Shown: positions 48,820 to 50,152 of the stretch, in pieces
Layout of the letters: every line of letters starts with the position of its first letter
Numbering within the stretch: the stretch's first letter is position 1
NCBI RefSeq assembly: GCF_058153355.1
Contig: NZ_CM177019.1
Strand: one strand, 5' to 3'
Length of the DNA stretch: 64,000 nt
Translations under genes and position numbers: made by a program
Notes under the pieces: model-generated
Database searches by the model: none
What the model was told of the DNA's origin: nothing
What the model saw: the letters and a program-made list of their open reading frames with translations, nothing else

Positions 48820-50152
48820 ATGGAAATTGCATCGAATAAAGGCGTCATTGCAGACGCTTCGACCCCGGCAGGTCGTGCTGGAATGAGTGAGAGCGAGTGG
48901 CGAGAAGCGATCAAATTCGACAGTACTGACACCGGCTGGGTGATTATGAGTATCGGGATGGCGATTGGCGCAGGGATTGTTTTTCTCCCGGTGCAGGTCG
49001 GTTTGATGGGATTGTGGGTATTTTTGCTCTCATCGGTGATTGGTTACCCAGCAATGTATCTGTTTCAGCGGTTGTTTATTAATACGCTGGCAGAATCACC
49101 AGAGTGTAAAGATTACCCCAGCGTCATCAGCGGTTATTTAGGTAAAAACTGGGGCATCCTGTTAGGTGCGCTCTATTTCGTGATGCTGGTGATCTGGATG
49201 TTCGTCTATTCCACAGCCATCACCAACGATAGTGCTTCCTACCTGCATACCTTCAGTGTGACGGAAGGGTTGCTGTCAGACAGTCCCTTTTATGGTCTGG
49301 TACTGATTTGCATTCTGGTGGCGATCTCCTCACGCGGCGAGAAATTGTTATTCAAAATTTCGACGGGGATGGTGCTGACCAAGCTGCTGGTGGTCGCGGC
49401 GCTGGGCGTGTCGATGGTGGGAATGTGGCATCTGTATAACGTCGGTTCGCTACCGCCGCTGGGGCTACTGGTGAAAAACGCCATTATTACGCTGCCGTTT
49501 ACCCTGACGTCGATTCTGTTTATCCAGACGTTAAGCCCGATGGTGATCTCTTATCGCTCGCGGGAAAAATCAATTGAAGTGGCGCGGCATAAAGCATTGC
49601 GGGCAATGAATATCGCGTTTGGCATTTTGTTTGTCACCGTCTTTATTCTACGCCGTGTCGTTCACGCTGGCGATGGGACATGACGAAGCGGTAAAAGCCT
49701 ACGAGCAGAATATTTCTGCGCTGGCAATTGCCGCACAGTTTATTAGCGGTGACGGCGCAGCGTGGGTGAAAGTGGTCAGCGTCATTCTCAATATCTTTGC
49801 CGTAATGACTGCATTCTTTGGTGTCTATTTAGGTTTTCGCGAAGCAACGCAAGGGATCGTAATGAACATCCTGCGTCGCAAGATGCCTGCCGAGAAGATT
49901 AACGAAAATCTCGTTCAGCGCGGCATCATGATTTTCGCCATTTTGCTGGCCTGGAGCGCCATCGTACTGAACGCACCGGTGTTGAGCTTCACCTCTATCT
50001 GTAGCCCGATTTTCGGCATGGTAGGGTGCCTGATCCCGGCGTGGCTGGTTTACAAAGTACCGGCATTGCACAAATACAAAGGGATGTCTCTGTACCTGAT
50101 TATCGTCACTGGTTTGTTGCTTTGTGTATCTCCGTTCCTGGCATTTTCTTGA
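48820..50152 (+). pseudogene. cyuP: Serine/cysteine transporter CyuP (YhaO) with apparent +1 frameshift near 49639-49653
   Basis: Two overlapping ORFs (48820-49683 and 49619-50152) in different frames together give one HAAAP-family transporter; frame 1 reads ...GILFVTVFILRR.. stop, frame 2 ...LFYAVSFTLAMGHDEAV.... Confidence 0.7.

Follow-up and report, generated by a model that had tools for sequence, protein, structure and literature searches.

CyuP (YhaO) of Escherichia coli is a cysteine-specific importer encoded in the bicistronic cyuPA operon, the activators of which are CyuR and Crp; jointly with CyuA it lets anaerobic E. coli ferment cysteine, and the two proteins constitute a catabolic (fermentative) import/desulfidase pair (Zhou & Imlay 2022, PMC9040844). 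Mutants in cyuP show slow cysteine uptake and growth via non-specific importers, yet are outcompeted on cysteine; under cysteine overload, by contrast, the deletion of cyuP improves protection: expelled cysteine is not re-imported (PMC9040844). Pseudogenes of yhaO have been documented in 3.29% of 1,581 E. coli/Shigella genomes, which makes it the most often pseudogenized gene of its locus (yhaM: 0.44%, yhaJ: 1.83%) (Connolly et al. 2016, PMC4699771). Among the related HAAAP transporters, TdcC and SdaC are represented by the profile TIGR00814 (“stp”), which CyuP matches end to end with about 11 helices; the substrate of CyuP, however, is cysteine according to published assays (D-serine has been reported in EHEC), not threonine or L-serine.

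The window analyzed here, i.e. the whole stretch of 64,000 nucleotides from contig NZ_CM177019.1 (NCBI RefSeq assembly GCF_058153355.1), shares the gene order tdcG, cyuP (yhaO), cyuA (yhaM), yhaL, yhaK, yhaJ with E. coli K-12 (locus at approximately 48.5–51.5 kb), and its CyuP, with one inserted base removed, agrees with K-12 CyuP (YhaO, b3110; annotated as “L-cysteine importer”) in 442 of 443 residues. The copy of the window differs from that of K-12 in being interrupted after codon 275, with the last 168 residues out of frame, and in carrying the replacement G146S. Compared with the yhaO pseudogenes of the published survey, the premature stop likewise shortens YhaO far beyond the 5% threshold applied there (PMC4699771); the lesion itself, an A at codons 275/276, does not occur among 5,389 complete E. 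coli genomes, and the other broken alleles examined carry different lesions.

Split reading frame at cyuP

Where a single 443-codon cyuP is expected, two overlapping open reading frames were present instead. The features of the locus are as follows.

48820..49683, + strand: 5' part of cyuP (yhaO), ORF of 287 aa, ending ...AFGILFVTVFILRRVVHAGDGT before the stop
49255, + strand: G-to-A substitution (Gly146Ser), sole amino-acid difference from K-12 CyuP
49619..50152, + strand: second ORF, in the next frame and overlapping the first, reading ...SLFYAVSFTLAMGHDEAVKAYEQ...
49645, + strand: inserted A, the frameshift mutation, from alignment with the intact cyuP of NZ_AP027764
49646..50152, + strand: 3' remnant of cyuP in the +1 frame, codons 276-443 and stop; protein 100% identical to the reference
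49673..50152, + strand: longest ORF of the remnant with an ATG start, 159 aa, MGHDEAV...

When aligned with its intact counterpart in NZ_AP027764 (1332 bases, 443 codons), cyuP of the window showed one indel, the A at position 49645, and 12 substitutions. The additional base interrupts an ancestral T5 run (GTCTTTTTCTAC to GTCTTTATTCTAC): without the A the junction reads GTCTTT-TTCTAC, with it GTCTTTATTCTAC. In the tblastn comparison, the reference CyuP was divided between frame 1, with residues 1-275 at 48820-49644, and frame 2, with residues 276-443 at 49646-50149. The first ORF accordingly consists of 275 native codons (48820-49644) followed by 12 out-of-frame codons, ILRRVVHAGDGT, and the stop TGA at 49681-49683. 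Thus, the reading frame of cyuP is broken relative to its intact orthologues by a derived mutation. An earlier sequence-only reading had joined the two overlapping ORFs of frames 1 and 2 into one transporter of 443 codons, identified it as cyuP (yhaO), and proposed one extra base (+1) near 49645 within GTC TTT ATT CTA CGC at 49639-49653; the ORF and tblastn results, the comparison with K-12 and the length of the NZ_AP027764 gene agree with it throughout, its coordinates are correct, and the alignment places the extra base exactly at 49645.

The ATG at 49673 is situated 8 bases upstream of the premature TGA, and the 159-aa ORF starting there is listed by gene callers as a gene of its own; a Shine-Dalgarno sequence was looked for in front of this ATG, and none was found. 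The programmed +1 frameshift of prfB (RF2) likewise involves two overlapping frames of one gene that are offset by one base. In contrast to prfB, cyuP possesses neither a slippery/hungry site of the CUU-UGA type nor an upstream Shine-Dalgarno stimulator (the region 49600-49690 contained no slippery motif or stimulator), and its offset is not conserved: it is a derived mutation in one clone, and the two-frame arrangement is absent from the 5,389 complete E. coli genomes.

The encoded protein and its recent interruption

Near-identity to K-12 b3110 and operon context identify the gene of the window as the CyuP/YhaO orthologue. At the nucleotide level it differs from the K-12 gene at 26 of 1,332 positions, and 10 of the 12 bases that differ from NZ_AP027764 cyuP are synonymous. 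The preservation of 442 of 443 residues despite 26 nucleotide differences indicates that the inactivation is recent, and the predominance of synonymous differences that cyuP was under strong purifying selection until recently.

The intact reference CyuP aligned with the NCBIfam model TIGR00814 over positions 1-397 of 397 (E 2.5e-151), with a score of 504.3 bits that lies below the curated cut-off of 525.8 for the stp subfamily; it is therefore a clear relative of TIGR00814 on a paralogous branch, not an stp member at the curated threshold. Against Pfam, intact CyuP had no significant match (best: Trp_Tyr_perm, E 0.12). In the window, the 5' part of the gene covers model positions 1-242 and the 3' remnant positions 252-397 (of 397). 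About 11 hydrophobic segments were recognized in the intact protein by a Kyte-Doolittle scan with a 19-residue window, which is a crude method. According to this hydropathy profile, the break after residue 275 falls into the middle of a helix at approximately 265-283, about the seventh of the 11: the truncated product retains some 6.5 helices, lacks the last four and ends in 12 foreign residues, two of them arginines; neither piece contains the nine native residues FYAVSFTLA.

Distribution and inheritance of the inserted base

With a 70-base query spanning the junction, 5,389 complete E. coli genomes matched at 98.6% (one gap) and none at 70/70; K-12 MG1655 cyuP has the T5 form. The absence of a full-length match among these genomes identifies the inserted A as the derived state. 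Relatives of the window were sought via its exact CyuA protein and the exact truncated cyuP products, and the same A was recovered in at least three other datasets.

GCA_015332025.1, NCBI assembly: carries the A; 1 SNP relative to the window in 9,311 bases
SRR31441161, Logan read-assembly: carries the A; 0 differences from the window in 5,425 bases
SRR28786219, Logan read-assembly: carries the A; 2 SNPs relative to the window in 5,689 bases

One further similar contig was found beside that of SRR28786219. SRR31441161 shows no difference from the window in the 5.4 kb compared and may represent the same isolate; the other two datasets differ from it by SNPs. Including the window, the carriers of the A fall into three haplotypes, 1-2 SNPs apart.

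Haplotype 1 (window and SRR31441161): CyuP Ser146
Haplotype 2 (GCA_015332025.1): CyuP Gly146
Haplotype 3 (SRR28786219): CyuP Gly146 and CyuA Ala41Gly

Since the A is shared by three SNP-distinguishable haplotypes, the mutation was inherited and is no artefact: the cyuP frameshift is real and clonally transmitted, not a sequencing error. Resequencing, which had been named as the decisive check by the sequence-only reading, was in effect performed by the three other datasets (0-2 SNPs from the window); they retain the A, and the 443-codon frame is not restored in any of them. In GCA_015332025.1, cyuP was left uncalled by the NCBI annotation, as expected for a pseudogene. The 287-aa product was found via a gene-position index; an exact look-up in a collection of 15 billion proteins yielded no match to it, and a scan of the JGI metagenome contigs detected neither the A-insert nor a T6 junction.

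The sister haplotypes have the frameshift but lack the replacement G146S, which hence arose after the inactivation; this single observation fits a relaxed constraint on the gene. Over the compared 5.7-9.3 kb, the SNPs among the A-carrying haplotypes were confined to positions 49255 (CyuP G146S; window and SRR31441161) and 50301 (CyuA A41G; SRR28786219), both nonsynonymous and both located in cyuPA. The constraint on the whole operon may have been relaxed after the loss of cyuP, on admittedly anecdotal grounds.

The window derives from a fairly divergent E. coli lineage: over 24 kb (40001-64000), it is 98.7% identical to only two complete genomes, EC42405 (bovine) and 2017-02-2CC (human), and approximately 96.3% identical to most of the 5,400 complete genomes.

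Other lesions of cyuP

In the public collection, 184 blocks list the 159-aa C-terminal ORF as a separate gene. None of the 10 loci with this ORF that were examined carries the A, and the insertion was consequently rejected as a common hotspot allele. The lesions observed at these loci comprised 1-, 28- and 35-base deletions, a copy with three indels adjoining a transposase gene, a 155-base insertion, runs of N, and a T5-to-T6 change in two long-read assemblies. This variety is consistent with recurrent breaks of cyuP, some of the cases being assembly defects. The T5-to-T6 change is situated at cyuP codons 274-276 in two unrelated long-read assemblies (GCA_900448645.1 and GCA_041399765.1) and yields the same split into 287 and 159 aa. 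As both assemblies contain other split or shortened genes nearby (tdcG, cyuA, yhaJ), their T6 runs are probably homopolymer sequencing errors, not true alleles.

Neighboring genes and expression context

The genes and signals that flank cyuP are the following.

48569..48598, + strand: terminator-like hairpin with T-run, 3' of tdcG
50180..51490, + strand: cyuA (yhaM), cysteine desulfidase, intact, 436 aa
52615..53511, + strand: yhaJ, LysR-type regulator of the yhaOMKJ locus, intact, protein 100% identical to the reference

The hairpin separates the tdc operon from cyuPA, on the basis of which the cyuPA promoter region is placed at approximately 48600-48819. The downstream cyuA, for which intactness had been claimed from the sequence and is corroborated here, is preceded by a ribosome-binding site of its own (AAGG), located within the 27 bases between cyuP and cyuA, and its exact protein sequence is present on 14 public contigs. 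A scan for an internal cyuA promoter gave no convincing candidate, and the promoter/terminator and Rfam scans revealed nothing bearing on the frameshift. Examined with a view to Rho-type polarity on cyuA, the untranslated stretch of 469 bases has a weak C-minus-G skew (at most 0.06) and is not C-rich or G-poor.

Besides cyuA and yhaJ, yhaK and yhaL are intact, as are approximately 55 other neighboring genes counted beside cyuA and yhaJ; cyuP is the sole split gene among the approximately 58 genes common to the window and the nearest complete genome. This argues against wholesale decay of the Shigella type, which was ruled out for the comparable genes. As a separate observation, the seven bases TAAAGCC in the tdcF-tdcG spacer (47100-47106) are present in the window and absent from three more distant loci (L002, L005 and L006) that encode the same CyuA protein.

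Further features of the window

Between agaR and garD, the window contains an island of approximately 8 kb (22400-30330) for a chitobiose-type PTS, at the place where most E. coli have the prlF-yhaV toxin-antitoxin pair. It encodes a DeoR/AgaR-like repressor, a ROK kinase, a Gfo/Idh/MocA oxidoreductase, ChbG (a YdjC-family deacetylase), a family-4 6-phospho-beta-glucosidase, a ChbC-like PTS EIIC and an EIIB, and its presence among 5,426 complete E. coli genomes is limited to three, isolated from goat, bovine and guinea-fowl hosts. The chbC-like EIIC gene (28146-29560, - strand) is one base short in a homopolymer at 29323, which gives a -1 frameshift (+ strand: A6 versus A7 in the intact gene of NZ_CP074749, strain R32_14_1F; coding strand: ...GGCTCCTTTTTTATTCATTAG), with a broken product that ends in GEGSFFIH and is followed by a 360-aa remnant. 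This lesion lies in an island that the nearest reference genome lacks. Gene calls on three public contigs include this 360-aa product as well, which makes the break probably real; one of these contigs, from SRR28786219, agrees with the window at all of 6,083 bases. Two transporter genes of the clone, cyuP and the chbC-like EIIC, are thus broken within 64 kb.

In the CS1/Tcf-type fimbrial cluster adjoining exuR, the periplasmic chaperone (60817-61527) has no protein match above 85% identity to its counterpart in the nearest complete genome; for the major subunit and the usher on either side, identity to that genome amounts to 99.5-100%, which suggests a recombined or replaced chaperone allele. 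The following Rfam matches reached the gathering score.

6182-6253: naRNA4 (CssrE)
36589-36965: rnpB (RNase P RNA)
55887-55927 and 56064-56104: ES036 (CssrF), two equal-scoring copies between yqjG and yqjF

Discussion

The interruption of cyuP is very probably a genuine, recent and clonally inherited loss-of-function mutation. According to the proposed course of events, the spontaneous insertion of an A into the T5 run within codons 275-276 would have inactivated cyuP in a recent ancestor of a small clone; the frame shifts in the middle of the transmembrane helix at approximately 265-283, and the stop follows 12 codons later. The truncated product, devoid of half a helix and of the last four helices, could presumably not form a transporter, and the 3' remnant, in front of which a ribosome-binding site is missing, is unlikely to be produced in useful quantity. 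Together, the mid-helix break and the missing Shine-Dalgarno sequence of the remnant lead us to infer that no functional cyuP product is formed. Such a clone would be left without its dedicated high-flux cysteine importer while keeping the CyuA desulfidase and the regulators.

In consequence of the 168 out-of-frame residues, cysteine-specific uptake is predicted to be lost. By analogy with the published cyuP knockouts, the clone should ferment cysteine and produce H2S more slowly, via non-specific importers, and should lose in competition with cyuP+ strains on cysteine; it may, on the other hand, be slightly better at tolerating cysteine overload. The sequence-only reading had assumed that the loss of CyuP uncouples import from detoxification by CyuA: “uncoupling” describes the situation fairly, but “detoxification” belongs to an earlier understanding of the operon (PMC9040844), and the effect to be expected from the analogy is a reduced cysteine fermentation, not a loss of protection.

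It might be asked whether the same mutation was fixed by positive selection, i.e. as an adaptive loss of cysteine/D-serine import, and not by drift. The deletion phenotype under overload (PMC9040844), the position of yhaO as the most pseudogenized gene of its locus (PMC4699771), the many unrelated cyuP lesions in public assemblies and the persistence of the allele in at least three haplotypes would all be compatible with a benefit; nevertheless, cyuP mutants are outcompeted when cysteine serves as a nutrient (PMC9040844), the allele is restricted to a handful of samples (no complete genome and no JGI metagenome contig), and the second broken transporter gene of the clone, the chbC-like EIIC, fits plain drift equally well. 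Fixation by selection is considered unlikely. Rather improbable, too, is the more specific proposal that the importer loss was selected in this clone, for instance by limiting the influx of cysteine or D-serine, and that together with the chitobiose-type PTS permease it marks an early stage of niche-specific transporter loss.

That the true genome contains an intact 443-codon cyuP, the A being a sequencing or assembly artefact, is highly improbable. Single-base indels near T-runs are a frequent class of error, and the two long-read assemblies with T6 at the same run and other split genes nearby illustrate it; in the present case, however, the inserted base is an A that breaks the T-run, whereas homopolymer miscalls alter the run length, and the annotation of GCA_015332025.1 treats the gene as it would a pseudogene. 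The recurrence of the same A in GCA_015332025.1, SRR31441161 and SRR28786219, i.e. in three distinguishable haplotypes, largely rules out a sequencing error.

Co-expressed halves of some permeases, e.g. LacY, can complement each other. An active CyuP assembled from the N-terminal fragment (helices 1 to approximately 6.5) and a reinitiated 159-aa C-terminal fragment would be permitted by the geometry of the locus, with its ATG close to the premature stop, and low-level termination-reinitiation at ATG 49673 or spontaneous frameshifting is conceivable from the sequence. A functional split transporter is nonetheless hardly to be expected: the cut falls within a helix, with the loss of FYAVSFTLA and the addition of the 12 foreign residues, the ATG lacks a Shine-Dalgarno sequence, and the frameshift allele is recent and has already acquired the replacement G146S.

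Finally, a recoding event (programmed +1 ribosomal frameshifting or transcriptional slippage) restoring full-length, functional CyuP is extremely improbable: one +1 shift anywhere in the frame overlap (approximately 49619-49683) would give a near-native protein, and a rare CTA codon directly follows the insertion, but as read from the sequence tRNA re-pairing in the +1 frame is impossible at UUU-AUU, AUU-CUA and ACA-UGA, an upstream stimulator is missing, TTTATT is no long homopolymer of the kind required for polymerase slippage, and a selected recoding signal could not evolve in an allele that is derived and restricted to one clone, with 5,389 genomes in frame.

The recent loss-of-function mutation of cyuP in this clone is a real but ordinary pseudogene and represents a new allele of a documented type of event. 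For the annotation, cyuP should be flagged as a true pseudogene; it should neither be “corrected” as an assembly error nor be annotated as two permease genes, although gene callers yield a 287-aa and a 159-aa product at the broken gene. In isolates of the clone, a reduced high-flux cysteine uptake would be expected, with less cysteine fermentation and less H2S as a result, and D-serine sensing would be altered if the EHEC findings on YhaO apply. While it raises no new biological question, the frameshift is a further independent allele in the low-frequency loss of yhaO already known from E. coli.
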